This document shows positions 17,066 through 63,227 of a DNA stretch of 64,000 nt, one piece after another. Position 1 is the stretch's first letter. Every line of letters starts with the position of its first letter. Origin of the DNA: Stegostoma tigrinum (lineage: Eukaryota); assembly GCF_030684315.1 (NCBI RefSeq), contig NC_081370.1, forward strand, positions 34,242,728-34,306,727. Reading direction: 5' to 3'. The translations under genes and the position numbers were made by a program. Below the pieces are notes generated by a model that made no database searches, was not told the origin of the DNA, and saw nothing but the letters and a program-made list of their open reading frames with translations.

Positions 17066-18037
17066 GTTAGATGCTCTGATTTAAAAGTGTGAATAATTAT
17101 AAGCTGGTATTATAAATATTTATCTGAGTGAAGCAGCTGATCTAGTGCAAAACGATAACGATTGAATTTGATCAAGCCCTGGAAAATTATTGACACGGCT
17201 GTATGTTTTAATCGTTGCTTTTTCATGGTAAGACACACTGTGCATTTTTGCTCCCTGCTGACACACAGCAGACCACAGTTTTCTGTCAATGAAATGCATT
17301 CTGTTCATTGGCTTCATGAAGCAGCAGGACCTTATATTGCAAGGAGTAAAAGTTAGCAAAACACAATCCCCAACTGGTACAGTGGCATCATATTGTTACT
17401 GCTAAGTTATCCACAGCTCTGGGAAATCACTGTACTTTGACCAATGATGTCAAATTGTGGAGAAATTCTTTTGAAATTGAAATTCTACTCTGACCTGTTG
17501 ACGACCATCCTGTTTTTCACAAAATGCAAGACATAAGTACAGTTCAGAGAATATTACCTCTTTTGGTGCTTTGCACAATTGCGACAAGTATTATAGACAT
17601 CATTCCGCACTTTTCTCTGTGTGTCAGAGATAGATTGTTGGTTGTGTGATGACGTTGCATTCCCGTCCTTGAGCAAATTTGGTTTTGGAAACTTCAGAAC
17701 ATCACTGTTGAAAAGATGTATTTTCATCGATCACACACAGTCAGGCAAGACGTCATTTCACGTTTGTGAACATCAAGAACTGGTTGCAATTTAACCTGAG
17801 AAATCCACTGTCCCTTATATCCAGAAAACAGCATGAATTGTACAATGATTTGACTACGATACGATATGCAGCAAGTTCATTCCGGGACACTTGAATCACC
17901 AAATGATTGCATTCATTGTACTGAGCTCAAGTTAACATGTGAAGTTCATTCTTGCACAAAATTGCTGTTCGGGCTGTTTTTACTCCCATATATTACGGAG
18001 CTTACTCTGCACATCTTTTATTTTTGTTATGATGTAG

Positions 18038-18118
18038 AACCACCGGCGCCGACTGAAAATCATCAAAATTCTGCTCCGCATACAGGAGAAAGTGAACAGC
18101 TTGAATCGGAACAGAACG
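18038..18118 (+). CDS. Repeat micro-exon type D, copy 2 (E>G variant)
   Basis: AG...G|GTGCAT, open frame, GAA>GGA. Confidence 0.66.
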
Positions 18119-20755: not shown

Positions 20756-20836
20756 AACCACCGGCGCCGACTGAAAATCATCAAAATTCTGCTCCGCATA
20801 CAGAAGAAAGTGAACAGCTTGAATCGGAACAGAACG
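20756..20836 (+). CDS. Repeat micro-exon type D, copy 3
   Basis: Same as 15319-15399. Confidence 0.72.
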
Positions 20837-23473: not shown

Positions 23474-23554
23474 AACCACCGGCGCCGACTGAAAATCATC
23501 AATATTCTGCTCCACATACAGAAGAAAGTGAACAGCTTGAATCGGAACAGAACG
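23474..23554 (+). CDS. Repeat micro-exon type D, copy 4 (N>Y variant)
   Basis: AG...G|GTGCGT, AAT>TAT plus one synonymous change. Confidence 0.72.
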
Positions 23555-41091: not shown

Positions 41092-41143
41092 ATGGGAATA
41101 TCACTTTTCTGTGTCGTCATCGTACTTTTCACTTCATTAATAG
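41092..41143 (+). CDS. B7-H6/NCR3LG1- or tapasin-like IgSF gene, exon 1 (signal peptide MGISLFCVVIVLFTSLI)
   Basis: AGGATGG Kozak context, hydrophobic leader, phase-1 donor AG|GTAAGA. Confidence 0.85.
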
Positions 41144-41469
41144 GTAAGAATATGAGTTTTGGTGTCTCCTGGTCCTTAAGCGTTGGAAACCCTAAACACG
41201 TACATGTCAGGTCAAACCTCCAACTTTAATTCTGCTTCAGGCCAATAGGCGGGGAGGGTTTTTAAAAACATTCTGCTGTATTGCGTGGATTTAGCCTTTA
41301 ATGACGATGTTTTACAACGCTTTTCAAAATATTTGTAGTCGTGATATTTATTTGAATGCCAACTGTGAAAAGGTTGTGCAGCTTGATTCTTAACTGACCT
41401 TTCTGTATCAGAATAAATACTTGGCTGTGTGTGAGAGAAGTGATAAAACCAGTAACTGGTTTTGTTGGG

Positions 41470-41594
41470 TGAGTGATAATGGGAACTGCAGATGCTGGAG
41501 GCCCTCTGATGAAGGGTCTAGGCCCGAAATGTCAGCTTTTGTGCTCCTGAGATGCTGCTGGGCCTGCTGTGTTCATCCACCCTCACGTTTTATT
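41470..41594. mobile_element. Short Penelope pLTR insertion in intron 1
   Basis: TSD AACTGGTTTTTGTTGG on both sides; CTGATGA...GAAATGTC core. Confidence 0.85.
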
Positions 41595-42099
41595 AACTGG
41601 TTTTGTTGGTAAATCTCTTCAGAGGGGTGTATCTTCCTAGAAAAACGTATTGAGGTGAAGGCGGTTCAGCTTCCAAAACGGAAGTTTCAGCTTTGTGTGC
41701 GGTCACCTTGCTTTCAATGTGTCCATCTGTACATATCCCTGAAACAAACACAAAGCGCGCTGGTTAGCAGTGTAGCAGCATTTGTGAAGCGACAACCCCG
41801 AGTTCAAGTCAGGTGTGAGTCCTCAGAACTGATTTTCTTTCGAGGGACATCACTGCAGTGATTTATCCTAATATCCCGTTTGACAAACCGAAGACGCAAA
41901 TGCAATGATTCAAAGTCAGTTGAATTTTGGGGAAGAAACGATGTTAAATTGTTTATCTTATTTTTTGCATTGACTCTGTGGCTCCGTGATTTCCGGACGT
42001 GTTGTACTCGTTCTACAAATTTGAAAATGACCAGCTAGGAGCAGCCCTTTGAGACTTCTTCACCGTTTAATACCTTCAAGGTTGAACTGATTGCTGCTT

Positions 42100-43100
42100 T
42101 CTTGAAATATAATGAGAATATATCCAGGTTTTCTTCTATCTGCAGTAGAACTTCTTCACAGAAGCCCAATACATTTGTTAAACACGAATTCTCGTTCACG
42201 AAATCTTGTTGACTCCGAGATAACAAAGTGTAGAGCTGGATGAACGCAGCAGGCCAAGCAGCATCTCAGGAGCACAAAAGCTGACGCTTCGGGCCTAGAC
42301 CCTTCATCAGAAAAGAGGGATGGGGAGAGGGGGAGGCGGACCGAAGATGGATAGAGGAGAAGATAGGTGGAGAGGAGATGGACAAAAGAGTTGAAGTGGG
42401 AGAGAGATCCCCTGAGGTTTGTCTGGAGGAAGGAGGGTAACTTCTTAAGATTAGGCATCCCTGGAAGAGGCTTCGCAGTGAAGTTAAAATTGTATCAGAG
42501 ATAATGGAAACTGCAGATGCTGGAGAATCCGAGATAACAAAGCGTGGAGCTGGATGAACACAGCAGGCCAAGCAGCATCTTAGGAGCACCTACGTTCATC
42601 CAGCTCCACACTTTGTTATCTCGGATTCTCCAGCATCTGCAGTTCCTATTATCTCTCTCTCTTGTTGACCCTGTCTGATTGACTTGAACTTTCCTAAAGG
42701 ATCCTGCTGTAACTTCAGTAATACCTTATTATCTTCCCCATCATAGATGTTAAACCAATTGCCCGGTAATTTTCCGTCTTACTCTCTTTTAATAAAGGAG
42801 TTACATTTGCATTCCCAGTCTAATGGAATATATCCTTAAGTTAGGAAGTCTCAGCATTTCAATATATCATATCATATCATCAATATCACTAGCTGCTTAA
42901 GGCCAAAGTTTGACGTACTAAGGAGACCGGGGCATTTCAGCCCCCAGTTTCAACAATTTGCTGAGTACCATTTCCCTGGCAACTGTAGTTTTCTTGAGCA
43001 CCTTTGCTCCTTTCCATTTGCTGATCTGCAGATATTTCTGGGTGTTGCTCATGTGCTGTGCAATGAAGACCAATTGCAAAATAGCTCTTGGGTTAATCTA
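42100..43100 (-). mobile_element. Old CR1 RT fragment split by a Penelope pLTR cluster (~42218-42659)
   Basis: Minus-strand SQQDFVNENSCLTNVLGF; TCTTGTTGAC duplicated around the Penelope part. Confidence 0.7.
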
Positions 43101-43551
43101 TCATCTCTTTTATTATCCATTATTAATTCACCGGATTTACTTTATCTCAGATCAATGTTCACTTTGTTAACTTTTTACTTTTGAAAATATCTGTAAAGTA
43201 TTGGTATCTATCGTTAATTCTTGATCACTTTCTTTCCATTTCTAATTTTCTCTTGTATTGTAATGTTTAACCTAACTTTCTCATGGACTCTACTTTCCCC
43301 TTCCTTACTAACTTCTCAATCATTCTTTGCATTTTTTAAAATATTCTGCCTGTGCATCTGATTTGCCAATCAACTTTGAGCAGTTGTATGCTTTTACTTA
43401 ATGTTTGTTTTTTTTCAGTTAACCAAGGATGGTGTGTCTTCGTTTGAAATTTGTCCATCATGTTGAATGTAACTATCCTCTGGATGTATTCTCTTAAATG
43501 TTTGTCACTGCATTTCAATTGCCATATCGCTTAACCTATTTTGCCAGTTTA

Positions 43552-43800
43552 GGTTAGAATCACTCCAGTGAAGAAGCAGGCCGTTCAGCCCTTCAAAGAG
43601 GCTCCCACCCAAGCACATCCTAACCCCATCCCAGCAAACCCCATGGCTAATCCACCTAGTTGACTTTTTCCTGGACACTGAGGGCAATTTTGGATGGCCA
43701 ATTCACCTAACATGCACATCGTTAGACTGGGCTTGAATCAAACCCAGGTCCCTGATGCTGTGAGGCATCAGTGATAACCACTGAGCCTCCATGCCATCGT
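43552..43800 (-). mobile_element. HE1-type SINE, internally deleted
   Basis: Minus strand begins GGCATGGAGGCTCAGTGGTTATCACTGATGCCTCACAGC and ends in a CR1-like tail. Confidence 0.75.
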
Positions 43801-43914
43801 TATATTAACTACCTCTAATTTCATGCCCTCGTAGTTGCTCCTAACCATGTTTAACGTATTTGCCTTGGACCACCTCTTATCCCCTTCAAACTGAAAATAA
43901 CATTCAATCATATT

Positions 43915-45292
43915 ACAGGTCTGGCAGTACCTGTGAAGGAGAAAACAGAGTTAACGTTTCGGGTCCAGTGGCCCTTCCTCAGAACTGCGGACTGCATCTC
44001 TCATGTTTCCCGCAACTCATCCCTCACACCCCCTCCATGCAATAGCAACAAAAACAGAATCTCCCTCATCCCCACCAACCTCCGGATTCAACACATCATC
44101 CTCTGCCACTTCCGCCACCTGCAATCTGCCCCCACTACCAAGGACATTTTTCCCTACCCACCCTTATCTGCCTTCCAGAGGGACCGCTTCTCCCTGACTG
44201 CCTTGTCTGCTCCACACTCCCCACTACCCCCACCACCCCTGACACTTCTCCGTGCAACCGCAGGAAGTGCTACACCTGCCCCTACACCTCCCCCCCTCAC
44301 CCACATCCCAGGCCCCAAGAAAACCTTCCACATTAAACAGATGTTCATCTGCACATCTGCTAATGTTGTATATTGCATCCACTGTTCCCGATGTGGCCTT
44401 CTCTACACTGGGAAAACCAAGCAGGAGGCTTGGAGACTGTTTTGTGGAACATCCGGGTGCTCTGGTTTCCTCCCACAGTCCAAAAATGTGCAGGCTAGGT
44501 GGATCAGCCATGCTAAATTGCCCATAGTGTTCAGGGGTGTGTGGGTTATAGGGGCATGGGTCTGGGTGGGATGCTCCAAGGGGCGTTGTGGACTTGTTGG
44601 GCCAAAAGGCCTGTTTCCACGCTGTAGGGAATCTAATCTACGTTTGGTTCATGACAAACGACTGCACCTCCCAGTCGCGAGCCACTTCAACTTCCCCTCC
44701 CACTCCTTGGACAACATGTCCATCCTGGGCCTCCTCCAATGCCACAATGATGCCCACCCAACGGCTGCAGGAACAGCACCTCATATTCCGTTTTGGGAAC
44801 CCTGCAGCCCAATGGTCTCAATGTGGACTTCACAAGCTTCAAAATCTCCCCTTCCCCAAACTTATCCCAAAACCAGCCCAGCTCGTCCCCGCCTCCTTGA
44901 CCTGTCCGTCTTTTCTCCGACCTATCCACTCCTCCCAACTCACTGACCAACCCCCACCCCCACTTCCTACCTATTAGCCTCTTCCCAATCTCCTTGACCT
45001 GTCTGTCTTCCCTCAAATGACCAACCCCCAATCCAACTCCCTTCTTCCAATCACCTTTACTGGCTCCATCCCCACCTCCTAGACCTGCCAGTCTTCCCTC
45101 CACCTATCTATTCCTTTATCTATCTTCCATCTTCGCCACCCTCTCTCTCTATTTATTTGAGTCCCCTTCCCCTCCACCATTTCTGAAGAAGGGTCCCGAC
45201 CCAAAACGTCAGCTTTCCTGCTCCTCTGATGCTGCCTGGCCTGCTGTGTTCATCCAGCTCCACACCTTGTTCACTCAGATTCTCAGTTCCTA
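43915..45292 (+). mobile_element. 5'-truncated Penelope-like element (GIY-YIG endonuclease) with a 5'-truncated HE1 SINE inserted at ~44452-44640
   Basis: FICTSANVVYCIHCSRCGLLYTGKTK...PVASHFN; pLTR at ~45180-45290; inverted terminus at ~43915-43985. Confidence 0.88.
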
Positions 45293-45297
45293 CTATC

Positions 45298-45835
45298 TGG
45301 AAGTAGAGACGTTGTCGTCTTTTCTTGACTGTCGCATCAACGTGGACTATCCTGGACAGGTTATTGGTGATCATCACTCCTCGGAGCATAATGCTCTTGA
45401 CCATTTCCACCTCAGCACCATTGATGTAGACAGGCCGTGCCCTTCACTTTGCATCCTGAAGTCAATGACCAGCAGTTTTATTTTGCTGATGTTGCGGGAG
45501 AGATTGTTATTTTTACAATGCACCACCAAGCACTTAATCTCTTTCCTGTGTTCTGTCTCGTTGTTGTTTGTGATCTGGTCTGCAATGGTTGTGTCATCAC
45601 CAAACTTGTAGATGGAATCAAGATGAAATTTGGATAGACATTAATGAGCGTACAGGGAATATAGTATGGTGCTGAGTATGCAGCCTTGCAGGGAGCTGGT
45701 TCTGAGGATTATCATGGAGGAGGTGTTGTTGCCTATTTCTATGTGAATCAGGAGTTAAGGATCCAGTTGCAGAGGGCAAAACAGAGACCTAGCTCTGAGT
45801 TTGAATATTAGTCTGGTTGGAATTATAGTGTTGAA
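45298..45835 (-). mobile_element. Rex1/Babar-like LINE RT fragment
   Basis: GVMITNNLSRIVHVDATVKKRRQRLYF, the C-terminal RT signature. Confidence 0.62.
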
Positions 45836-46278
45836 AGCCTAGGAGGAGAATACCTGGAAATCTTGTGAGAAAGACATAGTTTCAAAAACGCTTGTTGATT
45901 GAAACTGATTAGACTTATGCTGAGTGGATTGCCAAACCAATTCCTAACTTCTGACACTGTCTTTAATATATAATTTATAGTTTATAACCAGCCATAAGTT
46001 GTCTGTTACTTCACATTGAACTGATACTGATTCTGGATATAGAGTGTAAGGGTTAATCAAAGGATTTGGTGTATACTTTGTTTGACTCCTGTATAGTAAA
46101 AATGCTTCTGTTTTAACCATGAACTCTCGTGAATCTGTGTGTTTTGAAAATTTCAGGGGTCTTTTTAGAAAATTGATACTGCTCCCTACTAAGATTGTAA
46201 CAATAATTCTCTATGTATTTGAGATACTGAGAAATGTTTATGCATATTACCGTTTTAAAATGCTAAATTATTTTGTAG

Positions 46279-46617
46279 GAGCTTTAGAAGTGGAGATATT
46301 TCCCTCACCACTGGAAGTTTTAGCAAATGAGGATGCTCTTTTAAAATGTGAATATAAAGAACCAGAACCTGACCTCTCACATGTAGCTGTTCGATGGGCT
46401 TTAACATCACAAACCATCCAGAAAGATGTGTATGTATTCAATGGAGGAAATCATCAACCAATCAGAAATGGAGCAAAGATTTTTGACAATGATTTACGGA
46501 AAGGAAATGCTTCCCTTTACCTTCCAAATGTGAAACTTTATGAAGAAGGAACATACACCTGCACTGTTTTTGTCACTCCCCATAGAGAAGAAAAGAGTTC
46601 AATGATGCGAGTATCAG
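46279..46617 (+). CDS. IgSF gene exon 2, V-set Ig domain
   Basis: LLKC...VRW...DLRKGNASLYLPNVKLYEEGTYTCTVFVTP, typical of B7-H6/tapasin V domains; TAG/GTAGG; 339 nt, phase 1-1. Confidence 0.93.
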
Positions 46618-47092
46618 GTAGGAGAGAGAACATCAATTTCAGCCCCATAACATGCAATTTTACTTACAGTGCTGGGTATTTACTGCTATATGCAAAAATG
46701 TTTATTTCAATCTTAACAACATCAGACTCCCAACTCTGCTGATGACTAAGTGAGCATACCAGTTAATAACAACCATCAAAATTGCAGTCTTCACAAAGCT
46801 AGCTGACCATGCTTGGGGCAGCAATAGTAAGAGGTATAAGAAAAAATGTGTGAAGAGAAACATTGCACATCAAAATCACACAAAAATCGCTCCACAACTA
46901 TGATAGGATCCTGTCATCTTCAACTTTCCATTCCACCAGTGTCCACATTCAACTGATCATCCTGCAGGTAAAAACAAATGAAAATAGCAAAGGGAGTAAA
47001 GAACTGAAGCAAAGCTACGTTCTCAGAGCAAGAATTAGTAAAATCCACAGTGATATATTAACAACTTTCATATTCTATTCTATTTTACACAG

Positions 47093-47407
47093 TCCAACCA
47101 AAAGTCAGCATGTCTAAACAAGAAATCAAAACTGAAAATGGTATAGAGCACTTCTTGGAGTGTGATGTTAAAGAATTTTATCCTAAACTGATCAATGTTA
47201 GTTGGTTCAAGTTATCAAATGGAAAAATGGAATATGTTTCAACAAACCATTCAACTAAGGATATCATTATGAACAGTGATGGAACATTCACTGTCTCCAC
47301 TAAAGTGAGAACTGAACCAATGTTGAATGAACAAACTGACTACAGATGTGTAGTGGAACATAAAACCATTTTCGACAATTTTACACTGGATGCTGACAGT
47401 GCTGCAG
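47093..47407 (+). CDS. IgSF gene exon 3, C1-set Ig domain
   Basis: LECDVKEFYPKLINVSW...NSDGTF...YRCVVEH; CAG/GTAAG; 315 nt, phase 1-1. Confidence 0.93.
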
Positions 47408-47514
47408 GTAAGACCTAGTGAGAGTACAGAGTTTGCTTATAATTTATAATTTTATAACCTTGTAGCATTGAGTTGTTTAGATGGCCTTTCCAGTTTTGTA
47501 ATTGCTCCCTTTCT

Positions 47515-47850
47515 TTTATTCACTCGTGGGATGTGGGCATTATTGACCAGGCCAGCATTCATTGCCAATCCCTAATTGCCCTGAGTGCAGTTAAGAGGCA
47601 ACATGTCACTGTGGGTCTGGAATCAAATGTAGGACAGACTGGGTAAGGATGGCAGATTTCCTCCTCTAGTGGACATTAGTGAACCAGAAGGGTTTTTTTT
47701 TGCAAAATTGGCAATGGTTGCCATTTGGTGACCTTTGGATTCCAGATTTTTATTAAGTTCAAATTTCACCATCCACATGGTAGGATTTGAATATATGTCC
47801 CCTCAACTTTAGTTTAAGGATCTGCAGTGAAATTATCACTTTGTCATTGC
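47515..47850 (-). mobile_element. SacSINE1/DeuSINE-like element
   Basis: GTGGGTCTGGAATCA...GGGTAAGGATGGCAGATTTCC...GGACATTAGTGAACCAGA (reverse complement of a Deu-like domain) plus a LINE-derived tail. Confidence 0.65.
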
Positions 47851-48519
47851 ATTCCCCTAAATTTGAATTTCTATCTTTCTACTTGCCATGCCCAGCTCTT
47901 CACAGATTAGTATCATCCCTATATAGGTCCCTGTTCTTTACATAGCAGAAGACGCCCGCATGCCACAGCACAATACACCAAAGCAAAGATAGGGAGTGTC
48001 GAGCAGACGTGCACCTATATTGTATCAACTTTGATCATTGATCAATGTTGTGTTTGGAATTCAAACTGCATTGATGCTACGCCTCATTTTATTGGAAAGT
48101 TTTCTTTGAAAATGTAAATTTTTATTGTTGGGGTTCCTGAAGAATTCTTAAGCAGGACATAGCTGCAACCTACTTCACTCATTTTCCAGTGTGGGCTCTT
48201 CCAGACAAGACTAGACCCTAAGCAACATACCCAAAAGCCCAGATTCCTGTTTTAGGTATCTGACTGGGATGACTGAAAAACAAGCCTCGTTAATTTAGCA
48301 TAAGGCTAAATGCATAAAAAATTAGTTTCAAGCTCTGCACAATGTTGAGCACATATCACATGTTTACATAAATTATTTCAGTTCAATCATATTTTCTTGA
48401 AAGTAAGTTGATCCGATTAACAGAACGGGACAATAAAGCTTCTAATGAATATGTACAAATGTTGCAATCTATTCGTTGTCAATTTTAGAAAGAGTTGTGC
48501 ATGTTTTCTACTTCAACAG

Positions 48520-48624
48520 ATAAAATACTGACTGTATACCAAATTATTGGAGGCATTGCTGGCTTCTGTGCACTATGTATAGGAGTTTGTGCAGGAATTT
48601 GTATCTGGTACAAAAAATCGAAAG
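48520..48624 (+). CDS. IgSF gene exon 4, transmembrane (DKILTVYQIIGGIAGFCALCIGVCAGICIWYKKSK)
   Basis: CAG/GTAAAG, 105 nt phase 1-1, hydrophobic run followed by a basic stop-transfer KKSK. Confidence 0.88.
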
Positions 48625-49116
48625 GTAAAGTCATTTTTATATTCATTGAGACTGACTGACTATATATTCTAAGAACTATTTTGTTATTAGAACGTTGCAT
48701 GGCACCTTGCCTGAAAATGCTGAATATTTGTCATAATGGTGGAAAGGGAATTGTTTTTTGACAAGTTACCATCTGTGGGCAGCTTTATTGTTCTGACAGT
48801 GGTTTTGACTAATATTGTTTGGTCCCGATTGTGATCATTATTGGTTTCACCGCAACGCTGTTTCATTACAAGTTACAGAGTCACACAGGTTACTTTGTAC
48901 ATGTGGAGCAATCCCGTTGGTCCCATTCACCTGCTAGATCCCTATAGATTTATTTCCCTGTACACATTATATTACTTGTTAAAATCATTGATTACCTCCA
49001 CTTCCATCAGACTGCTAGGGGTAAATTCCAGGCCATTTGTTACTCATTGCACAAAACAATTCCTTTCTTCATCTTCGCTGTATCTCCTACTGAAACCTGA
49101 AGTCTCTGTTATCTAG

Positions 49117-49308
49117 GATAACAAAGTGTGAAGCTGGATGAACACAGCAGGCCAAGCAGCATCTCAGGAGCACAAAAGCTGACATTTCGGTCCTGGACCC
49201 CCCTCTGATGAAGCTTTTGAGTTCCTGAGATGCTGCTTGGCCTGCTGTGTTCATCCAGTTTCACTCTTTGTTATCTTGGATTCTCCAGCATCTGCAGTTC
49301 CCATTATC
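49117..49308. mobile_element. Short inverted-pLTR Penelope derivative
   Basis: Inverted arms; TCTCTGTTATCTAG duplicated at 49103 and 49307. Confidence 0.85.
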
Positions 49309-49414
49309 TCTGTTATCTAGTCCTTGTGCAATCAAGTTTTCTTTATTCTATTGCAATTTCACAATTAAACATAACATTCTTAGTTTTCAACTCAAATCCG
49401 ATAATTATGATCTA

Positions 49415-52400
49415 AAGTGGAGGAGCACCAATATCTTTGCAGGGAGATTTGCTACTGTCACTTGGGTGAATTTAAACTACAGTGGCAGAGCAGTGGGAAA
49501 CTGAGCAGTCAGTCAGCATGTGGTGTAATTGAGGAAAAGGTCATTGTTAGGTTAAGTAAGTCTAATAGGAAGAACAGGCAGGGTGATGTTAATGAACACG
49601 GTGGGACTAGTTGTCCGAAGTGTATTTGTTTTAATGCAAGGAGTATAACAGGTAAGGCAAATGAGTTTAAAACCTAGGTTGTACGCAGGATTATGATGTG
49701 GTTGCCATTATAGAAACTTGGTTGAAAGAAGGGCAGAACTGGCAGCACCATGTTCCACGTTCAGATATTTCAGGTGAGATAAAGAGGAATGTAAAAGGGA
49801 TGGGGGAGTTTCAACACAGATTAAGGAGAATATCACAACTGGACTAAGAGGGGACATCTTGGAGGGTACATCCAGCAAGGCCACGTGGGTAGAACTCAGA
49901 ATTAAGAAAGGCACAATCACTGTGATGCAATAACGCCATCAGTCTCCCAATAGCCAATGGTAGATAATGGAACAGATAGGCCAGAAGACCATGGAATGAT
50001 ATAAAAGCAACGTGAAATTATAGGCTGGTGAGCTATATATTAGTGGTAGGGAAATTATTGGAGAAGATTTTTTTGCATTTGGAGAAGAATGGATTTATGA
50101 GGAAAAGTCAGCACGGTTTAACGCAGGGAGGTTTTGTCTCATGAATTTTAGAGATTTTTGAGAAAGTAACAAGTGGTTGATGAGTGTAAGGCAGAGGATG
50201 TTTTCTACATGGATTTTACTAAAGCACTTGATGATGTTTCCCTCATGGTGATTGATCCAGAAGGTTAAGTCACATGACATCCATGGTGTGTTTATAAGTT
50301 GGACACACAATTGCTTAGTTATGGAGGGGTGATTTTCTGACTGGAGGCCTGTGATCAGTGATGTTCTGTGAGGATCAGTACTGGGACCTCCTTTGGTTCT
50401 AAGATAGCCAAATGACTTGGATGAAAATGTCGGTGGTAGGTTTGCAGGCAACACGAAAATTGATAGACTTGTGGATAGTAAGGAAGGTTGTCAAAGGATG
50501 CAAAAGGACATAGGTCATAGAGTCACAGACACATACAACACGGAATATGGTACAACTCGACCATGCTGACCAGATATCCGAAATAAATCTAGTCCCACTT
50601 GCCAACATTTGGCCCATACCCCTCTAAACCTTCCTATTCATATACACATTCATATACACATTCAGATGTCTTTCAGATGTTGGAATTGTACCAGCCTCCA
50701 CCAGTTCCCCAGCAGCTCATTCCATACACACACCACCTGCTGCATGAAAAATTTGCCACTTAAATCCCTCTTAAATCTTTCCCCTCTCACTTTACACCTA
50801 TGCCCTCTCGTTTTGGACTCCCCTACGCTCGGCAAAGACCTTGTTTATTTACCCTAACCATGCCCCTCATGATTTTATAAACCTCTGAGGTCACCCCTCA
50901 GCCTCCAACGCTCCAGGGAAAATAGGCCCAGTCTAATCAGTGTCTCCATATTGGTCAAACCCTGCAACCTTAGCAACATCCTTGTAAATCTTTTCTGAAC
51001 CCTTTCAAGTTTCACAACATCGTTCCAACAGCAGGGGGAGCAACATTGCATGCAGTATTCCAATAGTGGCCTAATCAATGTCCTTTACAGCCACAACATG
51101 TCCTCCCAACTCGGATACTCGATGCACTGACCAATAAAAGGCAAGCATACCAAATGCCACCTTCACTGTTCTATCTACCTGCGACTCCACTTTCAAGATT
51201 GAAAAGTCAAGTGAAGAAATGGCAGGTGGAGCTTAATCTGAACAAGTGAGAAGTGATGCATTTTAGGAGGTCAAATAAAAGAGGAAGGTATACTGTAAAT
51301 GGCAGTACACCTGGGAATATGAATATACAGAAGGATCTTAGAGTGCAAGTCCATGACCCCTGAAAGTAGCAACACAAGTGGATAAAGTAGTAATGAGGGC
51401 ATATGACTGTTGCCTTCATCAATCAGGGCATTGAATACAGAAGTTGGCAAGTTAAGTTGCATCAGCATATAACTTTAGTTACGCCACATTTGGAGTACTG
51501 TATGTAGTTCTGTTTGCCACACCATAGGAAGGTTGTGGAGGCTTCTGAGGGGGTACAAAAGAGGTTTACTAAGATGTTAGACAACAAGGTGTAGAGCTGA
51601 ATGAACACAGCAGGCCAAGCAGCATCAGAGGAGCAGGAACGCTGATGTTTCGGGCCTAGACACTGCTTCAGAAATGGGGGAGGGGAAGGGGGTTCTGAAA
51701 TGAATAGGGAGGGGGAGTGGATAGAAGATGGATGGAGGAGAAAATAGGTGGAGAGGAGACAGACAGGTTGAAGTGGCGGGGATGGAGCCAGTAAAGGTAA
51801 GTGTAGGTGGGGAGTTAGGGAGGAGATAGGTCAGTCTAGGGAGGGCAGACAGCTCAAGGGGGTGGGATGAGGATAGTAGGTAGGAGACAGGGGTGGGGTT
51901 TGAGATGGGAGGAGGGGATCGGTGGGAGGAAGAACAGGTTAGGGAGGCGGGGACAAGCTGGGCTGGTTTTGGGATGCGGTAGGGGGAAGGGAGATTTTGA
52001 AGCTGGTGAAATCCACATGGATACCATTGGGCTGCAGGGTTCCCAAGCAAAATATGAGGTGCTGTTCCTGCCACCTTTGGGTGGCATCGCTGTGGCACTG
52101 CAGGAGGCCCAGGATGGACATGTTGTCTGAGGAGTGGGAGTGGGAGTTGAAATGGCTTGCGACTGGCGATGGTGGGGTCAGATTGCAGATGGTGGAAGTG
52201 TCGGAGGATGATGCTTTGGATCTGGCGGTTGGTGGGGTGGTACGTGAGGAGGAGAGGGATTCTGTTTTGGTTGCTGCGGGGAGGGGGTTTGAGGGATGAG
52301 TTGCAGGAAATGCAGGAGAAACTGTCGAGGTCGTTCTTGACCAATGAGGGGGGGAAGTTGCAGTCCTTGAAAAATGAGAGCATCTGAGATGTTACAGGAG

Positions 52401-53345
52401 TGGAATGCCTCATCCTGGGAGCAGAAACAGTTGAAGCAAAGGAATTGGGAATAGGGGATGGCATTTTTGCAGGAGGGTGGGTGGGAGGAGGTGTATTCTA
52501 GGTAGTTGTGGGAGTCAGTGGGCTTGAAATGGAAATCGGTTTCCAGGTGGTTGCCAGAGATGGAAACAGAGGTGTCCAGGAATGAGAGAGAGGTATCAGC
52601 AATGGTCCTGGTGAGCCTAAGGCGTTGGTGAAGTGGATGAACTGTTCAAGCTCCTCATGGGAGCACGAGGCGGCACCGATACAGTTGTTGACGTAACGGA
52701 GGAAGAGGTGGGGGATGGGGCCAGTGTAGCTATGGAAGAGGGATTGTTCCACGTAACCTACAAAGAGGTAGGCGTATCTTGGGCCCATGCGGGTACCCAT
52801 GGCCACTCTCTTTGTCTGTAGGAAGTGGGAGGAATTGAAAGAGAAGTTCTTGAGGTGAGGACGAGTTCCCTCTCCCTTTACTAGGATGTTGCCTGGATTG
52901 GAGTGTGTTAGCCATAAGGAGAGGTTGAACAAAGCTGGATTGTTTTTGCTCGAGTGTCAGAGACTGAGGGGCAGCCTGATAAAAGTATATAAAATTGAGA
53001 AGCATGGACAAGGCAGGTCATAAAATCCTTTTTCCAGGGTGAAAATGTCAAATAATAGGGGGCATTGATTTAAAGTAAGAGGGGAAAAGTTTGAAGGAAA
53101 TGTGCGAGGAAAGCCTTTTGTTTTACACAAAGTGTTTAGGTGCCTTGACTGTACTGCCAAGGGAAGTGGTAGAAACAGATATAGTAGCAATGTTTAAGTG
53201 GCATTCAGACAGTCACAAGAACAAGCAGGGAACAGAGGGATACAGAGCGTGTGCATGCACATGAGATTAGTTTAGATTGGCATCATGGTTGACGCAATCA
53301 TGGTGGGCTGAAGGGCCAGTTTCTGTGCTGTGCTGTTATGTGTTC
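49415..53345 (+). mobile_element. Degenerate CR1 LINE (+) interrupted by an antisense CR1 3' end (~50514-51195) and a Penelope element
   Basis: CICFNARSITGKANEF (APE start), RT pieces, 3' tail at ~53300-53345. Confidence 0.85.
51579..52876 (-). mobile_element. Penelope-like element (RT C-terminus + endonuclease + pLTR)
   Basis: AMGTRMGPRYAYLFVG...FLRYVNNCIG; 14-bp TSD TTTACTARGATGTT at 51565 and 52877. Confidence 0.9.
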
Positions 53346-53499
53346 TTTGTTCAGGCTCGTCTAGCTTGGACTGAGATGTGGCTGAGTCAGTGCTGTGTCT
53401 CAGGTGAAACAGGAGGCCCAGCAACGATTTCCTCCACTTCACAAGGATTAGTGCTACCACCTTCTGTATGCTACCTTACACATTCAAGGTCACCACTTA

Positions 53500-54432
53500 T
53501 TTGAACTCTACCACCATGCAGTCCTCTCATGACGATGTGTAGATTATTGTATAAAACATGTAGCTGCAGTCACCTTCTCAGCAAATTACTATTGGTTCCT
53601 ATTTACTCACTGGGGACACCTCACCTGCTGTCCTGCTCATGCATCATTGCTGGCTGCCCTTCCATCCACTTCCATTACACCCAACCCACCTTATGTCTTA
53701 TTGCATGAAAAAATGAACCTCAACGAGTCTGAGAGGGCGAAGACTAGGCAGCGGGTGATGGTGGACAAAAGGCTCCCACCTCAGAAACAAAGAAAAGGTT
53801 GCACTTGGCTGGAGAAGACCACAGCCACTCACTGGGGCTTCATGAGCAACCAACGCCATGCGCTTATTGTGCCATGTTGTAGTGCTGCCTGACTGCCACC
53901 AACATTACACTCCATCCTAGTCACTGTCCTGATCCTCATCATCTTCCTCTGAAGATTGCTGTTGACCACTAATTATCTCCACATTCAGGATTTTGTCATT
54001 TCCAGTTGTGAAGGGTGCAGTATGCCATAATCATGTAACATACCCTTTCTTGCCTACACTGTAAAACTTCTCCAGGCATTAAAACCTTATCATAACAAGC
54101 CTGTGGTCTGTTCCACTGTGACACTGTTGGAAGTATGGACTGTGCTGTATCTCCATTTGTATCACTCTGAGGGTTTTGTAAAGGTTTTATGAGCTGTATT
54201 TGAAAGGGGTTAGGTCTTGTCTCTCAGTAGCCATCCCTGCATAGCCCAAGGAACTTGGAAAGAAGTAGGAACCTTTGTGTTCTCCCAGCAACTCCCAGGA
54301 TATATCGCACTGAGCTCCAAGATCTGGCATCGATGATCACAGATAAGTTCAACATTAATGGATTGGTGGCCTTTTGCATTAACAAACTGTACAGGTTGGG
54401 GCTTGAGGCCTCTCACTGAAACTGGCACCACC
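53500..54432 (-). mobile_element. PIF/Harbinger DDE transposase relic
   Basis: FVNAKGHQSINVELICDH...YPGS...GWLLRD matches the Harbinger NRKGxHSxNVQxVCD/PGS/LLGD motifs. Confidence 0.78.
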
Positions 54433-54669
54433 TAGTTTCCTGGGAAAGGATTCGACAATTCAAAGCTGTATAGAAGTGAGTAAATCTACAAATGAAATGC
54501 AAATGTATGGAATAAAGTAGTCACCACTCATCAGTAAGATTCAGAACTGGTCAGTTAAAGTCCAATTGGAAAATTAAAATATTTAAAATGCAGCACACAT
54601 GATAATAAGTTGTCAATCCATCAGTTAACTTAGTGAATGGGTGAAAAACAGATCTGAATTTTCTGCTAA

Positions 54670-55043
54670 AGATAACAAAGTGTGAAGCTGGATGAACACA
54701 GCAGCCCAAGCAGTATCCCAGGAGCACAAAAGCCTCCATTTCCCACCTACCAACCTCATCCTGCCTCCTTGACCTGTCCATCCTCCCTGGACTGACCTAT
54801 CCACTCCCCACCTCCCCACCTATACTCTCCTCTCCACCTGTCTTCTCCTCTATCCATCTTCGGTCCGCCTCCCCCTCTCTCCCTATTTATTCCAGTTCCC
54901 TCTCCCCATCCCCCTCTCTGATGAAGGGTCTAGGCCCGATACGTCAGCTTTTGTGCTCCTGAAATGCTGCTTGACCTGCTGTGTTCATCGAGCCCCACAC
55001 TTTGTTATCTTGGATTCTCCAGCATCTGCAGTTCACATTATCT
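54670..55043. mobile_element. Inverted-pLTR Penelope derivative
   Basis: TCTGAATTTTCTGCT duplicated on both sides. Confidence 0.85.
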
Positions 55044-55529
55044 CTGAATTTTCTGCTGCTCTCCAGCTTCAGTTTACTGTTCACAAATGTGGAAATCACA
55101 TTTTAATGAGCGAACAAAATTCACAAGTGGACTTTCATTCTCCAGCAACAATTTTGCCCGCTATTTACTGGCATCGTAAGTGTGAATATTGCTGAAATCC
55201 TACTTTATCTAATTGTGACGGTTTTGTTTTGGTTGTTCACTATGACCAGACACTGGGCTCATTTGGCATATTGGTAGTGTTCTTATCTCCAAGCAAGGAG
55301 GCCTGATTTGACGCCCCACCTGCTGCAGAGTTTTGTATCTTTGAACAGATTCATTCGTAATAAATCCATAACCAGGTATTTGTTACTGCTATGTTCATCT
55401 TGGGCAGTGAAAGGATTGAGACAAATGTCTTGTTGAATTGGTTTCCAAATGTCTGAATAGAAGTCGGCTGAAGAACTGAGCTAATGGTGCACTTGTAATA
55501 CTGCCCCATTCAGGGTTCAAATGCCATTG

Positions 55530-55815
55530 ATATGACGGGTGAGTGGGGTGAGATTAATAAAGAACCCAAGAGGCAACTTTTTCATACAGAGCTGGAGCAT
55601 GTACAGAATGAGCTACTACAGAACATGGTGGAGGCTGTTAGAATTAAAACATTTAAAAGGCATCTGCGTTAGTACATGAACAGGAAGGGTTTAGAAGGTT
55701 ATGGCCCAAATGGTTGTAGATGGGACTAAATTAATTTGGGATATCTGGCGGGCATGGATGAGTTGAATCAAATGGTCTGTTTCTGTGCTGTACAACGCCA
55801 TGACTCTGACTCTAT
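55530..55815 (+). mobile_element. CR1 LINE 3' end
   Basis: GGCAACTTTTTCATACAGAG...TCTGTTTCTGTGCTGTA...ATGACTCTGACTCT tail. Confidence 0.75.
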
Positions 55816-55934
55816 TTCATGGCTAAGTATTTTGATGGCATTGATTTTAAGGGTGACAAGAAGCAAATACCATTGATACAAGTCAATGTATTTTGTACAC
55901 AAGGCTGATATATTTTGACTTCATTGTTTTTAAG

Positions 55935-55991
55935 GACAACAAGAAGCAGATGAAGCTAAACATGAATCTGAAAGGTCGTTACTTGCAAAAG
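55935..55991 (+). CDS. IgSF gene exon 5, cytoplasmic linker (GQQEADEAKHESERSLLAK)
   Basis: TTGTTTTTAAG acceptor, AAG|GTAAAT donor, 57 nt phase 1-1, open, in non-repeat sequence. Confidence 0.65.
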
Positions 55992-56395
55992 GTAAATACT
56001 ATGCCAAGTATATAATGTTGATTTTTGCTGCTTCACTGACAGCCCTGCATTGGAAGAGAACAGCCAGAATGGAAATAAGGCTCCACATTTCTGAGGGTGC
56101 CTCGAGTGAAATCTCCTCTCAGAAATGAGGAGCTTCTTTCTTATATAAAAGCAAAGGGCCATTGCCACTGCTCAGAAAATCCTGCCCATTAAAGCACGGC
56201 ACCTGGTGCGTATCCACACAGATTTCCATGGGGCTGACATTCAAGTAAACTTTAAGTTCACTAAACCTGCAAGGTCAAACTGCCTTAACTTTCAAAGTTT
56301 CCACCAACTGGGCACTGTTAAAGCGATCACTCAAAGAGCCTTTAACAGTGGTTGTTTAGCTTACATATGGAACATCATAACTTAAGTAAATTTGA

Positions 56396-59300
56396 TGTAG
56401 AGGTGCTGGTATCGGACTGGGGTGGACAAAGTCAGAAGTCTCATGTCACCAGATTGTAGTCCAACAGCTTTATTTGAAATCACAAGCTTTTGGAGCACAG
56501 CCCCAATGTCAGGTGAAGAGAGGGAGGAGCACATAGATATAGAATTTATAGGCAAAGAGATCAAATATCATACAAATGATGTGAGGGAAGTGTTGAATAA
56601 TAAGTCTCTGCTGGAGATCAAAGGTATCAGACGGTGAGAGTAAAGTGTTCACAGCTGAATAACAAGCGAAGGGATAACCTATAATCTGATTAAATGAGGT
56701 GGGGAGATAATTACAAAAAAAAAAGTTGGTGCTGGAGAAAAACTAAGTGACTGGAATAACATGACAGTTATGCTGAGGATCTAACCAAAGCAAAAAGAAG
56801 TCCAAAACTGCACAACATATTTAAGGTTGAGAAATCATAACAATTTATCCAAGTGATCGTGTCAAGTAGGACAGTAAGGAAAGTTTTACAGATACAGAAC
56901 AATGTGGTGGGGTCACATTTAGAGCAACATGAATCCAAGATCACGGTTGAGGCCGTCTTCATGGATACAGAACTTGACGATCAGTCCCTGCTCAGCAATT
57001 CTGTGTTGTGTATCTTGAAGGCTACCTTGGAGGACACTTACCCGAAGATTGGAGGCTGAATGCCCTTGACCGCTGAAGTGTTCCCTGACTGGGAAGGAAC
57101 ATTTGTATCTGGTGACTGTTGTGCACTGTTCATTCATCCCTTGTTGTAGCATCTGCATGGTCTCGCCAATGTACCATGCCTCAGGGCATCCTTGCCTGTG
57201 GTGTATGAGATAGACAACATTGGCCAAGTCACATGAATATCTGCCATACACGTGGTGGGTGGTGTTCCCATGTGTGATGGTAGTGGCCATGGCGAAGATC
57301 TGACCTATCTTGCTATAGCATGGTTGAGTGGCGTTGTGGTCGATGTAGTCCTAAAGGCTGGGTGGTTTCCTGTGAACGATGGTCTGTTTAAGGTTTGGTG
57401 GTTGTCTGAAGGTGAAAAGGGGAGGCATTAGTATGACCTTGGCGAGATGCTCAATTATCATCAATGACATGCTGAAGGCTGTGAAGAAGAACGTGGTGTA
57501 GTTGCTCTGCTCCAGGGAAGTGCTGGACGGTGGAGGAGTACTCTATTGGTTGCATCCTGTGTCTGTCTTCTGAGGAGGTCTTTGCGGTTTTTCACTGTGG
57601 CGCGTCGGAACTGGCAATTGATGAGTTGAGCATTGCATCCCAGTCTTAGGAGGGCATCCTTCAAAATGTTTGGGTGCCTGCTACATTTCTCCTCATCCGA
57701 GCAGATCCTGTGCATACACAGGCCTTGTCTGTAGGGGATGGCCTCTTTAACATGTTTAGGGTGGAAACGAGAGAAGAGCAGCATTGTGAGGTTATCCATA
57801 GGCTTTGCAATAGAGTGAGGGGTTAAGGTTTCCGTCCTTGATATGGATGTGTGTGCCCAAAAATGAGATTGATTCTGAAGTGTAGTCCATGGTAAGTCTG
57901 ACAGCAAGATGAAACTTGTTAATATTGCTATGTAGTAATTTGTGATTCCTCACCATGGGTCCAAAGGGAGAAAATGTCATTGATGTATCTGGTGTATAGC
58001 ATTGACTGGAGATCCTGCACAGCAAAGAGCTCTTGCGCAAGCTTGGGTATGAAAATGTTGCATACATAGAACATAGAACACAGAACATTACAGCACAGTA
58101 CAGGCCCTTCGGCCCTCAATGTTGTGCCGACCTGTCATACCGATCTCAAGCCCATCTAACCTACACTATTCCATGTACGTCCATATGCTTATCCAATGAC
58201 GACTTAAATGTACTTAAAGTTGGCGAATCTACTACCGTTGCAGGCAAAGCGTTCCATTCCCTTACTACTCTCTGAGTAAAGAAACTACCTCTGACCTCTG
58301 TCCTATATCTTTCACCCTTCAATTTAAAGCTATGCCCCCTCGTGCTCGCTGTCACCATCCTAGGAAAAAGGCTCTCCCTATCCACCCTATTTAACCCTCT
58401 GATTATTTTATATGTTTCAATTAAGTCACATCTCAACCTTCTTCTCTCTAATGAAAACAGCCTCAAGTCCCTCACCCTTTCCTCATAAGACCTTCCCTCC
58501 ATACCAGGCAACATCCTAGTAAATCTCCTCTGCACCCCTTCCAAAGCTTCCACATCCTTCTTATAATGCGGTGACCAGAACTGTACACAATACTCCAAGT
58601 GCGGCCGCACCAGAGTTTTGTACAGCTTCACCATAACCTCTTGGTTCCGGAACTCGATCCCTCTATTAATAAAAGCTAAAACACTGTATGCCTTCTTAAC
58701 AGCCCTGTCAACCTGGGTGGCAACTTTCAAGGATCTGTGTACATGGACACCGAGATCTCTCCGCTCATCTACACTGCTAAGAATCTTACCATTAGCCCTG
58801 TACTTTGCCTTCCGACTACTCCTACCAAAGTGCATCACCTCACACTTGTCTGCATTAGACTCCATTTGCCACCTCTCAGCCCAGCTCTGCAGCTTATCTA
58901 TGTCTCTCTGCAACCTACAGCATCCTTCGTCACTATCCACAACTCCACTGACCTTAGTGTCGTCTGCAAATTTACTAACCCATCCTTCTACGCCCTCATC
59001 CAGGTCATTTATAAAAATGACAAACAGCAGTGGACCCAACACTGACCCTTGCGGTACACCACTAGTAACTGGTCTCCAGGATGAACATTTCCCATCAACT
59101 ACCACCCTCTGTCTTCTTTCAGCAAGCCAATTTCCGATCCAAACTGCTATATCTCCCACAATTCCATTCCTCTGCATTTTTGTACAATAGCCTACTGTGG
59201 GGAACCTTATTGAACGCCTTGCTGAAATCCATATACACCACATCAACCGGTTTACTCTCATCTACCTGTTTGGTCACCTTCTCAAAGAACTCAGTAAGGT

Positions 59301-62300
59301 TTGTGAGGCACAACCTTCCATTCACAAAACCGTGCTGACTATCCCTAATCAATTTATTCTTTTCGAGATGATTATAAATCCTATCCCTTATAACCTTTTC
59401 CAACACTTTACCAACAACTGAAGTAAGGCTCACTGGTCTATAATTACCAGGGTTGTCTCTACTCCCCTTCTTGAACAGGGGAACCACATTTGCTATCCTC
59501 CAGTCATCTGGCACTATTCCTGTAGACAATGACGAGTTAAAGATCAATGCCAAAGGCTTGGCAATCTCCTCCCTGGCTTCCCAGAGAACACTAGGATAAA
59601 TCCCATCCGGCCCAAGGGACTTCTCTATCTTCACCTTGTGAAGGATTTCTAATACCTCTTCCTTGTGAACTTCAATCCCACCTAGTCTAGTAGCCTGTAT
59701 CTCAGTATTCTCCTCGACAACATTGTCGTTTTCTACAGTGAATACTGTTGAAAAATATTCATTTAGCGCTTCCCCTATCTCATCTGACTCCACTGATTGG
59801 GCCTAATCTTTCTTTAGTCATTCTTTTATTCCTTAAATACCTATAGAAAGCCTTAGGGTTTACCCTGATCCTATCTGCCAACAACTTCTCATGTCTCCTC
59901 CTGGCTCTTCTGAGCTCTCTCTTTAGGTCTTTCCTGGCTACCTCGTAACCCTCAAGTGCCCTAACTGAGCCTTCACATCTCATCCTAACATAAGCCTTCT
60001 CCTTCCTCTTGACCAGAGATTCCACCTCCTTCGTAAACCACGGCTCCTGCACTCTACAGCTTCCTCCCTGCCTGACAGGTACATACTTATCTAGGACACA
60101 CAGGAGCCTTTCCTTGAATAAGCTCCACATTTCTAACGTGCCCATCCCCTGCAGTTTCCTTCCCCATTCTATGCTCCCTAAATCTTGCCTAATCTCATCG
60201 TAATTGCCTTTTCCCCCAGCTATAACTCTTGCCCAGTGGTATACACTTATCCCTTTCCATCACTAAAGTAAACATAACAGAATTATGATCGCTATCACCA
60301 AAGTGCTCACCTACTTCCAAATCTAACACCTGGCTGGGCTCATTACCCGGTATGAAATCTAATGTGGCTTCACCCCTTGTTGGCCTATCTACATACTGTG
60401 TCAGGAAGCCCTCCTGCACAAACTGGACAAAAACTGACCCATCTGTAGTACTCGAACTATAGTGTTCCCAGTCAATATTTGGAAAGTTGAAGACCCCATG
60501 ACAACCACCCTGTCTCTCTCACTCCTATCGAGAATCATCTTTGCTATCCTTTCCTCTACATATCTGGAACTATTCGGAGGCCTATAGAAAACTCCCAACA
60601 GGGTGACCTCTCCTTTCCTGTTTCTAACCTCAGCCCATACTACCTCAGTTGACGAGTCCCCAAACATCCTTTCTGCAACTGTAATACTGTCCTTGACCAA
60701 CAATGCCACACCTCCGCCCCTTTTACCATCTTCTCTGTTCTTACTGAAACATCTAAATCCCGGAACCTGCAACAACCATTCCTGTCCCTGCTCTATCCAT
60801 GTCTCTGAAATGGCCACAACATCGAAGTCCCAGGTACTAACCCATGCTGCAAGTTCACCCACCTTATTCCGGACGCTCTTGGCATTGAAGTAGACACACT
60901 TCAATCCAACTTCTTGCTTGCCAGTGCCATCTTGCTTCCCTGAAACTTTATTTTGGACCACCCTACTCTCAATCTTTTCTATAGTCGAACTACAATTTTG
61001 GTGCCCATCCCCCTGCTGAATTAGTTTAAACCCACCCGAATAGCCTAAGCAAATTTCGCCCCCAGGATATCGGTACCCCTCTGGTTCAGGTGAAGACCAT
61101 CCTGCTTGTAGAGGTCCCACCTGCCCCAATTATCCAAGAATCCAAAACCCTCCCTCCTGCACCATCCCTGTAGCCACATGTTCAACTCCTCTCTCTCCCT
61201 ATTCCTCGCCTCACTAGCACGTAGCACGGGCAACAAACCAGAGACAACAACTCTGTTCGTCCTAGCTCTCAGCTTCCATCCTAGCTCCCTGAATTTCTGC
61301 CTTAAATCCCCATCTCTCTTCCTACCTATGTCGTTGGTGCTTATGTGGACCACGACTTGGGGCTGCTCCCCCTCCCCCTTAAGGATCCAAAAACACAATC
61401 AGAGACATCACGCACCCTGGCACCTAGAAGGCACCATACCAACCGTGAGTCTCTCTCATCCCCAAAGAACCTCCTATCTGTCCCCCTAACTATGGAGTCC
61501 CCAATGACTATTGCTCTGCTCCTCTTCCCCCTTCCCTTCTGAGCAGCAGGGACAGACTCTGTGCCAGAGACCTGTGCCCCACTGCTTTCCCCTGGTAAGT
61601 CATCCCCCCAACAGTATCCAAAACAGTATACTTATTGTTGAGGGGAATGGCCACAGGGGATCCCTGCACTGCCTGCCGGTTCCCTTTCCGTCCCCTGACT
61701 GTAACCCATCTGCCTTTATCCTGTACTTGAGGAGTGACTACCTCCCTGTAACTCCTCTCAATAACCCCCTCTGTCTCCCGAATGATCTGAAGTTCATCCA
61801 GCTCCAGCTCCAGTTCCCTAACACGGTTTTCAAGGAGCTGGAGTTGGGTGCACTTCCTGCAGATGTAGTCAGCAGGGACACTAGTGGTGACCCTTACCTC
61901 CCACATTCTGCAGGAGGAGCATTCAACTGCCCTGACCTCCGTTCCCATTATTCTAAACTCCCAAGACTTTAAAAAAAGCATAAAAAATACACTTGTTACC
62001 TTACCAATCAGGCACACAGAACCTTTTTTTTTGGTTAGAGGAGGAGGATGGGTGGGAGACACTACCTGGGTAGTGTTTCGGGTAACGCAACCACGCAAAT
62101 ATATTACCTCACTCACTCACCAGTCCCGTGTCGGCTCCTGCTCAGCGTACCTCCGCCTATTCACGAGGTAAGCTTTTTAAAGATTCAAAAACCGTGACTC
62201 ACCGGCTTCCCGACAGGCTCCTGCTCCAAGCTCCTGCTTGCACTGCTTCTCAGGGGAACAGGAGAATAATTACGGTCCACATGCAGTTCCTTGCGCCTGG

Positions 62301-62610
62301 AAAAAGAACTGGTTGTCGAAGGTAAAAATGGTCGAGGATGACGCAGATGAGCTGGAGGATTACGTCTGGAAATTGGCAGGTGTTGATATTGAGTATAGAG
62401 GCTGTTGCATTGAGGCCGTCATTGTTGGGGGTGCTGGTGTGTTATTCGACACTCCACTAAGGCTATTTGTATGATCTTTTGATCTCACTGCCTATAAATT
62501 CTATGTCTGTATATTTCACCCACACTTCACCTGACAAAGGGGCTATTCTCTGAAAGCTTGTGATTTCAAATAAACCTGTTAGACCATAACCTGGTGACTT
62601 GTGACTTCTG
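56396..62610 (-). mobile_element. Second-family Penelope element with inverted termini, split by a CR1
   Basis: GIY-YIG ANVVYLI...WYIGET (56919-57290); RT at 57461-58060 resuming at ~62262 (FTFDNQFF.QAQGTACGP); ACTTAAGTAAATTTGA duplicated at 56380 and 62611. Confidence 0.88.
58065..62255 (-). mobile_element. Near full-length CR1 LINE (ORF1 zinc finger/leucine zipper/SGNH esterase; ORF2 APE + RT), frameshifted
   Basis: ORF1 CSSC..CRKC..LELELDEL and VVVHISTNDIG; ORF2 CVYFNAKS, ISETW, SDHN, GVPQGSVLGP, KFADD; (TTCTATG)n tail. Confidence 0.95.
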
Positions 62611-62804
62611 ACTTAAGTAAATTTGAGCATAACTTGTGCACAGTGTAGAGAAGGTGAGATTGCACCTATTGAGAACAAATAATCTCTTTTAAATGATGCA
62701 ATTAATGGTGCTTTCAGTTCATAATTTGTGTCTAAACAAGAATGCACAGCAGAGAGTTGGGACAAATGTTTATATTGCATTTATGTTTTATTTTTATATC
62801 ATAG

Positions 62805-63227
62805 TTCCATGTATAATTAGTGATATCAAGACACCGTTTGAAATCAGAGATGGTGTGGAAAGCCGTCTGAATTGGAAAGTTGCTGTAGTCAGCCCAGGAG
62901 TGGTGACTATTGTTACATCGATCAAAAGGAAGCACGAAAAGGATGAAAAGAAATTATTTCACTGGCAATCTAAAGCGCCACAGTCAGGACCAAGGAGAGT
63001 AACTTTTCCCCTCAAAAGTCTATCAGGCTCATGTGAGAAAGATGATTCCTTCTGTGCAGAAGAGCCAGAATTACACCGCAGTTCTGACGGGACGTTCTTC
63101 ATTCCCTGCACAATTACAATGCATCCCAATGTATCCAAGGATGATGGTGCTGTGGTAACGATCAAAGTTGAACAGGATTCTATAGAGGAAACCTTGACTA
63201 AAAGCACGGTACTAAAAGTCACAGCAG
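62805..63227 (+). CDS. IgSF gene exon 6, post-TM C1-like Ig domain without canonical Cys; the gene continues beyond the window
   Basis: VPCIISDIKTP...SDGTF...HPNVSKDDGAVVTIKVEQ...LKVTA; TAG/GTAATT; 423 nt phase 1-1. Confidence 0.8.

Follow-up and report, generated by a model that had tools for sequence, protein, structure and literature searches.

The window analysed here, 64,000 nucleotides of contig NC_081370.1 of the zebra shark Stegostoma tigrinum, contains the first six exons of a gene (LOC125459499) that, judged from its sequence, is a cartilaginous-fish paralogue of the natural killer (NK) cell ligand B7-H6 (NCR3LG1). Its predicted product combines a V-C1 ectodomain with a single transmembrane (TM) helix, behind which stand three copies of an immunoglobulin (Ig)-like domain, termed d1, that has lost its disulfide. 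On balance it is probable that the gene encodes a B7-H6 paralogue with an NKp30-type ectodomain, in which the likely cytosolic d1 tail would serve as a trafficking and docking platform.

In the window sequence the six exons, all on the forward (+) strand, have AG/GT ends and are joined in phase 1 throughout, giving an open frame of 430 codons identical to the start of the RefSeq model P0005 (LOC125459499, Stegostoma tigrinum). The exon order proposed in a first-pass annotation of the window (signal peptide, V, C1, TM, linker, Ig) is thus confirmed by the splice sites, the frame and the database model. Exon 1 (41092..41143) carries the ATG and the signal peptide (hydropathy 2.5) and ends in a phase-1 donor. 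Exon 2 (46279..46617) encodes the V-set domain (Pfam V-set, 2.7e-11), whose FG-loop V-T-P aligns with human B7-H6, while exon 3 (47093..47407) encodes the extracellular C1-set domain (Pfam C1-set, 1.9e-13), which has three sequons and retains both its cysteines. The single TM helix (hydropathy 2.33), followed by the basic cluster WYKKSK, is specified by exon 4 (48520..48624), and exon 5 (55935..55991), covered from 55933 by an RNA-like contig of a relative, encodes an acidic linker ending in ESERSLL. Exon 6 (62805..63227), assigned by alignment, profile and predicted structure, encodes a C1-derived Ig domain and ends in a splice donor (CAG/gtaatt), from which the gene runs on beyond the window via acidic spacer exons. 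Two further d1 copies follow there, copy 2 at G000:C20:34,324,150-34,324,572 and copy 3 at G000:C20:34,335,756-34,336,178 (94% and 93% identity, respectively), so that exon 6, previously taken to be the last domain, is the first of three. That exon 6 belongs to a separate gene was ruled out: it has no start or leader, and the same order is found in four paralogues and in 63 proteins.

Aligned to L006, a paralogue in which neither cysteine is lost, exon 6 shows Trp in the B-strand Cys column and Ile in that of the F-strand Cys, as had been read from the letters alone, and Thr at the C-strand Trp. It also carries an insertion of about 30 residues and an NVS sequon; the sequon is present in each d1 copy of the zebra shark gene, with D instead of N in other sharks. 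Pfam gave no match to exon 6 alone, C1-set included; its assignment as an Ig domain comes from profile and structure comparison. The Pfam C1-set model matched two of eight aligned exon 6 homologues (best 6e-10), hhalign gave a probability of 83% for exon 6 against the C1 exon of the same gene, and a search of PDB sequences with an eight-row d1 profile returned weak C1 matches (best E 0.015). The predicted model of exon 6 is a beta-sandwich with a predicted local distance difference test score (pLDDT) of 93.4 (55-row alignment), and its top structural matches are all Ig domains (Z up to 11.3, root-mean-square deviation (rmsd) 2.5, 109 aligned residues). V-type rows come first among them, since the ordered insertion fills the C'-D region. 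For the d1 model of the paralogue g3, in which the insertion is of low confidence, the best match was the C domain of human B7-H6 (Z 13.0, rmsd 1.6, 98 residues), with C1 domains of major histocompatibility complex (MHC) class II and SIRP proteins within 1 Z of it. The ABED/GFCC' beta-sandwich of the C1-set is present in the exon 6 model, and both the B-F disulfide and the C-strand Trp are absent; the modelled domain is therefore C1-derived rather than a canonical C1. The Ig fold suspected for this disulfide-less exon is supported by the model and its structural matches. A d1 homodimer prediction, made without use of the alignment, scored 0.00 and bears neither way.

The gene is the second (g1) of five V-C1-TM genes, g0 to g4, arranged in tandem at G000:C20 34.18-34.49 Mb. 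Their post-TM tails differ, with d1 three times in g1, seven different domains in g2, and six in g3 and g4. Among PDB structures, the best single V+C match to the studied gene was human B7-H6 (78.8 bits), compared with 57 for TAPBPR and 46 per unit for CD276. In the alignment, the NKp30-contacting Thr127-Pro128 of the B7-H6 FG loop is kept as VTP in the shark V domain, and this Thr-Pro supplies 44% of the NKp30 contacts (PMC3135353). Exons of the NUCB1_N family, the sole matches in the genome, are located some 100 kb upstream in the same orientation (C20:34,074,068-34,078,448, +). In human, NUCB2 adjoins NCR3LG1 at 11p15.1. One row of an expression quantitative trait locus table names NUCB2 and NCR3LG1 together, which is consistent with such a neighbourhood (PMC7071772). 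A PI3K search gave no match on C20. Because of the best V+C structure match, the kept FG-loop Thr-Pro and the nucleobindin neighbour, the gene is filed on sequence grounds as a paralogue of B7-H6 and is not tapasin-like; of the earlier label "B7-H6/tapasin-like", the first half stands (78.8 bits, NUCB locus) and the second is dropped. The V-C1 ectodomain is likely to engage an NKp30-type receptor.

A search with a profile built from eight sequences of d1 gave 287 cluster representatives at E 0.001, and 157 proteins were taken for an architecture count. The order V-C-TM-d1 was found in 63 of the 157, or in 59 non-redundant proteins after removal of four isoform duplicates (P0002-P0004, P0006); domains of fewer than 70 residues were left out of the per-domain alignments. 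Among thirty holders looked up by name were chimaera, sharks, rays, bichirs, coelacanth, lungfish, caecilian, salamander, frogs and lizards. A Lacerta protein named NCR3LG1 has d1 behind its TM helix, and the kiwi NCR3LG1 keeps the start of d1. The usual post-TM tail is d1-d6. The architecture that the first-pass annotation had called unusual is thus not a one-off, and V-C1-TM-Ig is most likely the ancestral layout of B7-H6, normally with six post-TM domains. Such a tail would have originated when, in early jawed vertebrates, a B7-H6-type C1 exon was copied to a position behind the TM exon. Both canonical cysteines are present in almost every V (57/59) and in every C (59/59), and in few copies of d1 (2/58), d4 (1/26), d5 (7/23) and d6 (4/21). 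RefSeq already lists these models as uncharacterised proteins. A full-text literature search found no description of post-TM Ig domains of B7-H6, which does not establish their absence from print.

Other arrangements of related domains were seen in the same collection. Three frog models (P0091, P0149, P0185) join PYRIN to four to six C1-like domains with no signal peptide or TM helix, and are candidate cytosolic sensors or adaptors drawn from the same domain stock. A second, frog-expanded family (P0038, P0059, P0081 from Spea, P0083 and others) has V-C-(C)-TM with about 10-12 C1-like domains behind it. In the Xenopus laevis model P0106, V-C-TM-d1 is followed by a post-TM tachylectin domain (Pfam 6e-30), and in P0212 and P0213 (Pristiophorus and Heterodontus) another paralogue type bears a d4-like domain four to five times in its tail, not d1.

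Several features suggest that d1 lies on the cytosolic side. P0005 has a signal peptide and one TM helix, and its hydropathy reaches at most 1.39 after residue 275. In the 59 V-C-TM-d1 proteins, the 12 residues after the helix hold on average 2.7 Lys and Arg versus 1.2 before it, with a higher count after the helix in 46; none of the 59 has a later TM segment, and the gap from TM to d1 is shorter than 17 residues in most. The multi-pass exceptions, the frog-type P0094 and P0151, have three membrane helices between C and d1, which leaves d1 opposite the ectodomain. In V and C, sequons are concentrated in fixed alignment columns (39-49% of rows), whereas d1-d6 reach at most 17%. A further TM exon concealed between exons 4 and 6 was also looked for; the three phase-1 candidates all lie in a remnant of a long interspersed nuclear element (LINE), with hydropathy of 1.18 or less, and were rejected. 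The type I topology with a disulfide-less Ig domain behind the helix, as first proposed, is supported by hydropathy, charge and the lack of a later TM segment, and d1 is very probably cytosolic in the main isoform.

In a quick V+C tree the studied gene groups with genes of Carcharodon, Mustelus, Heterodontus and rays (Shimodaira-Hasegawa approximate likelihood ratio test, SH-aLRT, 90), all of which have d1-only tails and Trp at the B position. The tree was built without bootstrap from a set with reptile and bird rows named NCR3LG1 and without mammalian rows or outgroups (CD276, HHLA2, TAPBP), and the V-only P0105 and P0135 form long branches in it. The d1 copies in a tail number from 1 to 8 and are 73-100% alike within species versus 50-76% between species, a pattern suggestive of repeated independent amplification or homogenisation in each species. 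In the zebra shark, copies 2 and 3 sit in a 5.9-kb duplicate of 99.5% identity, and the exact copy number is uncertain. An assembly artefact was ruled out in part as the source of the three copies, as 11-12 codons set copy 1 apart and repeats are also present in other sharks. In the nearest orthologues found, three from Chiloscyllium and Hemiscyllium (84% in V), the tail consists of acidic repeats and has no Ig domain. The lineage would have dropped d2-d6 and either tandemly amplified d1 or lost it. What is new here is a copy-variable paralogue with a d1-only tail and a Trp core, together with the loss of d1 in bamboo sharks.

The tail contains no tyrosine motif, P0005 having no tyrosine after residue 271, past the juxtamembrane one, and the signalling role suggested for the exon 6 domain accordingly finds no support. 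Of the 41 members that have further domains, 17 carry a strict [DE]xxxL[LI] motif in the flexible d1 loop (pLDDT 58-63), against 1.9 in shuffled sequences (maximum 7). This motif is absent from the d1 loop of the elasmobranch d1-only clade. In that clade all ten proteins have acidic+[LF][LI] (LL, LI or FL) in the linker versus 0.7 in shuffles, the motif having been defined after inspection on related sequences, and a strict ENCPLI is kept in all three Ig-less bamboo and epaulette shark orthologues. Acidic dileucine motifs bind AP adaptor complexes. The recurrence of acidic dileucine-like signals across tail types suggests trafficking rather than signalling. In the proposed mechanism the tail would serve in trafficking and docking instead of phosphotyrosine signalling. 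A signal of the acidic dileucine type, carried by the d1 loop in six-domain members and by the linker exon in the d1-only lineage, would be bound by clathrin adaptors and hold the ligand inside the cell or in recycling, setting the surface abundance of the NK ligand. The folded d1 repeats would then act as a variable-length, multivalent scaffold for a predicted cytosolic partner.

A number of observations weigh against this proposal. No Ig exon was found behind the TM exon of the upstream paralogue g0, and d1 is dispensable in the three close bamboo and epaulette shark orthologues. The zebra shark linker ESERSLL is one residue off the strict consensus and is only dileucine-like. Synteny is one-sided: for KCNJ11, the downstream-side neighbour of NCR3LG1, no Kir open reading frame or motif was found in about 280 kb downstream of the cluster, and the nearest Kir on C20 lies at 23.6 Mb among the best 18 of 26 candidates. 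The overall sequon count shows a 1.2-1.6-fold excess in d1, d2 and d5, and most copies of d2 (32/35) and d3 (33/35) retain the two canonical cysteines, so that disulfide loss, offered earlier as a sign of cytosolic location, is not diagnostic by itself. In its favour, frog PYRIN proteins without leader or TM helix carry d2-like domains (70-74 bits) with both cysteines; such domains therefore occur in predicted cytosolic proteins, and kept cysteines do not force a luminal reading. At the transcript level, no reads or contigs joining TM to linker or linker to exon 6 were seen in the RNA-like data, where the 17-kb query was swamped by repeats, and these two joins rest on gene models and cross-species order. 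The RNA-like contig X1 (527 nt, depth 10) instead runs from V (46617) straight into the linker (55935), skipping C1 and TM in frame; it is one contig from one run, of guessed RNA status, from a relative about 95% identical in V. With V-C-d1 lacking a TM helix in 3 of the 157 database models as well, secreted forms may exist. The first-pass annotation had raised the case that exon 6 occurs only in TM-skipped isoforms: a TM-skipping join does exist in the relative, and it is not shown to be the sole form.

The absence of d1 from the three orthologues and from g0, together with the spread in copy number from 1 to 8, would also fit an unlikely explanation, that the cytosolic d1 repeats are what is left of the ancestral tail, decaying or serving as an inert spacer, and only short linear motifs matter. 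The differences among the zebra shark copies are mostly non-synonymous (8-9 of 11-12 codons), and the region is rich in recent tandem duplications. However, d1 is 55-63% identical across shark orders, near the 61-69% of the C1 ectodomain, with frames open; its model is well folded, and the Cys-to-Trp core change is fixed lineage-wide. It is more doubtful still that d1 has its main role in a C1/TM-skipped isoform (V-linker-d1n) that is secreted or luminal, for instance as a multivalent soluble NKp30 decoy. The V-to-linker join in X1, the common phase 1 of all exons, the three TM-less models, the NVS sequon of each copy and the cysteines kept in d2 and d3 of relatives would agree with it. However, X1 has the limited source described above, 59 proteins from across the jawed vertebrates retain the TM exon immediately in front of d1, D replaces the sequon N in other sharks, and the disulfide is lost in d1, d4, d5 and d6. 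A comparably improbable idea, that the Ig repeats serve in the cytosol as an innate sensor, or as bait for pathogen proteins attacking B7-H6 trafficking, with inflammasome-type coupling in some lineages, draws on the rapid gain, loss and homogenisation of copies, the PYRIN fusions in frogs and the targeting of human B7-H6 for degradation by herpesviruses (PMC6514059), but the zebra shark protein has no effector domain and the PYRIN fusions resemble d2, which the gene lacks.

The studied gene shares with human B7-H6 the type I V-C ectodomain, the FG-loop Thr-Pro and the position downstream of a nucleobindin gene, whereas Leu129/Lys130 are replaced by His/Arg. The human tail is described as Gag-homologous with immunoreceptor tyrosine-based inhibitory (ITIM), SH2 and SH3 motifs (PMC2715080). 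The shark tail, in contrast, has three Ig-like repeats and acidic spacers, with no tyrosine motif. The six- and seven-domain B7-H6 proteins (g2-g4; Latimeria, Protopterus, Polypterus, caecilian, salamander, frog and Lacerta) are alike in V-C1-TM-d1, in a C'-strand Trp and in the lost F-strand Cys; the studied gene differs in having only d1, three times, Trp for the B-strand Cys, an extra linker exon and no d1-loop dileucine. Tapasin/TAPBPR and CD276 share the pair of V and C-type Ig domains but score lower per unit; in P0005 the signal peptide joins V directly, with no N-terminal tapasin domain, and the TAPBPR match starts at residue 171-178. Neither tapasin/TAPBPR nor CD276 is known to have post-TM Ig domains. 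Cytosolic tandem Ig folds in which the disulfide is not obligatory occur in titin, filamin, obscurin and myosin-binding protein C, which are soluble proteins with I-set or filamin folds; the shark domains, unlike these, are C1-set derivatives on a membrane immune ligand. In antibodies, T-cell receptors, MHC, tapasin and SIRPs, C1-set domains stand outside the cell or in the lumen, and none is known to work on the cytosolic face of a membrane.

The surroundings of the gene are repetitive. About nine tandem 6.37-kb units, 99.3-99.8% identical, occupy positions 1-14489 of the window and about 34,199,900-34,257,200 of G000:C20, downstream of the g0 TM exon; no Ig exon was found in this array, which is a recent segmental array or an assembly expansion and may hold repeated tail exons. 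Four tandem 2.72-kb units (97-98.5%) follow at 14490-25059, each containing a putative acidic mini-exon that ends in a stop (EPPAPTENHQ... near 15318), and are possibly the 3' end of g0. Intronic remnants of LINE (endonuclease/reverse transcriptase) and Penelope/GIY-YIG-like elements at 58164-62116 (-), 51600-52950 and 43855-45100 are ordinary shark repeats. Elsewhere, a large V-set exon cluster at G000:C44:22.6-27.6 Mb gave about 19 of 29 matches to exon 2 (28-35% identity) and represents another Ig-superfamily locus.

Tentatively, and with somewhat less than even confidence, these features may be drawn into a wider proposal: C1 domains would have been cytosolic in ancestral B7-H6, the shark paralogue would have rebuilt d1 without the Cys pair and core Trp and amplified it (0-8 copies), and frogs would have reused such domains with PYRIN, together making up an undescribed class of C1 domains that work in the cytosol in interaction or sensing. 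The exon 6 domain offers a natural example of a disulfide-free C1 fold. The paralogue is also the simplest test case, with one domain type, NVS as a glycosylation reporter of topology, and natural variants of 0-8 copies. The upkeep of a post-membrane C1 lineage throughout jawed-vertebrate history points to a lost intracellular function of the NKp30 ligand, whose human replacement would be the Gag-derived tail.

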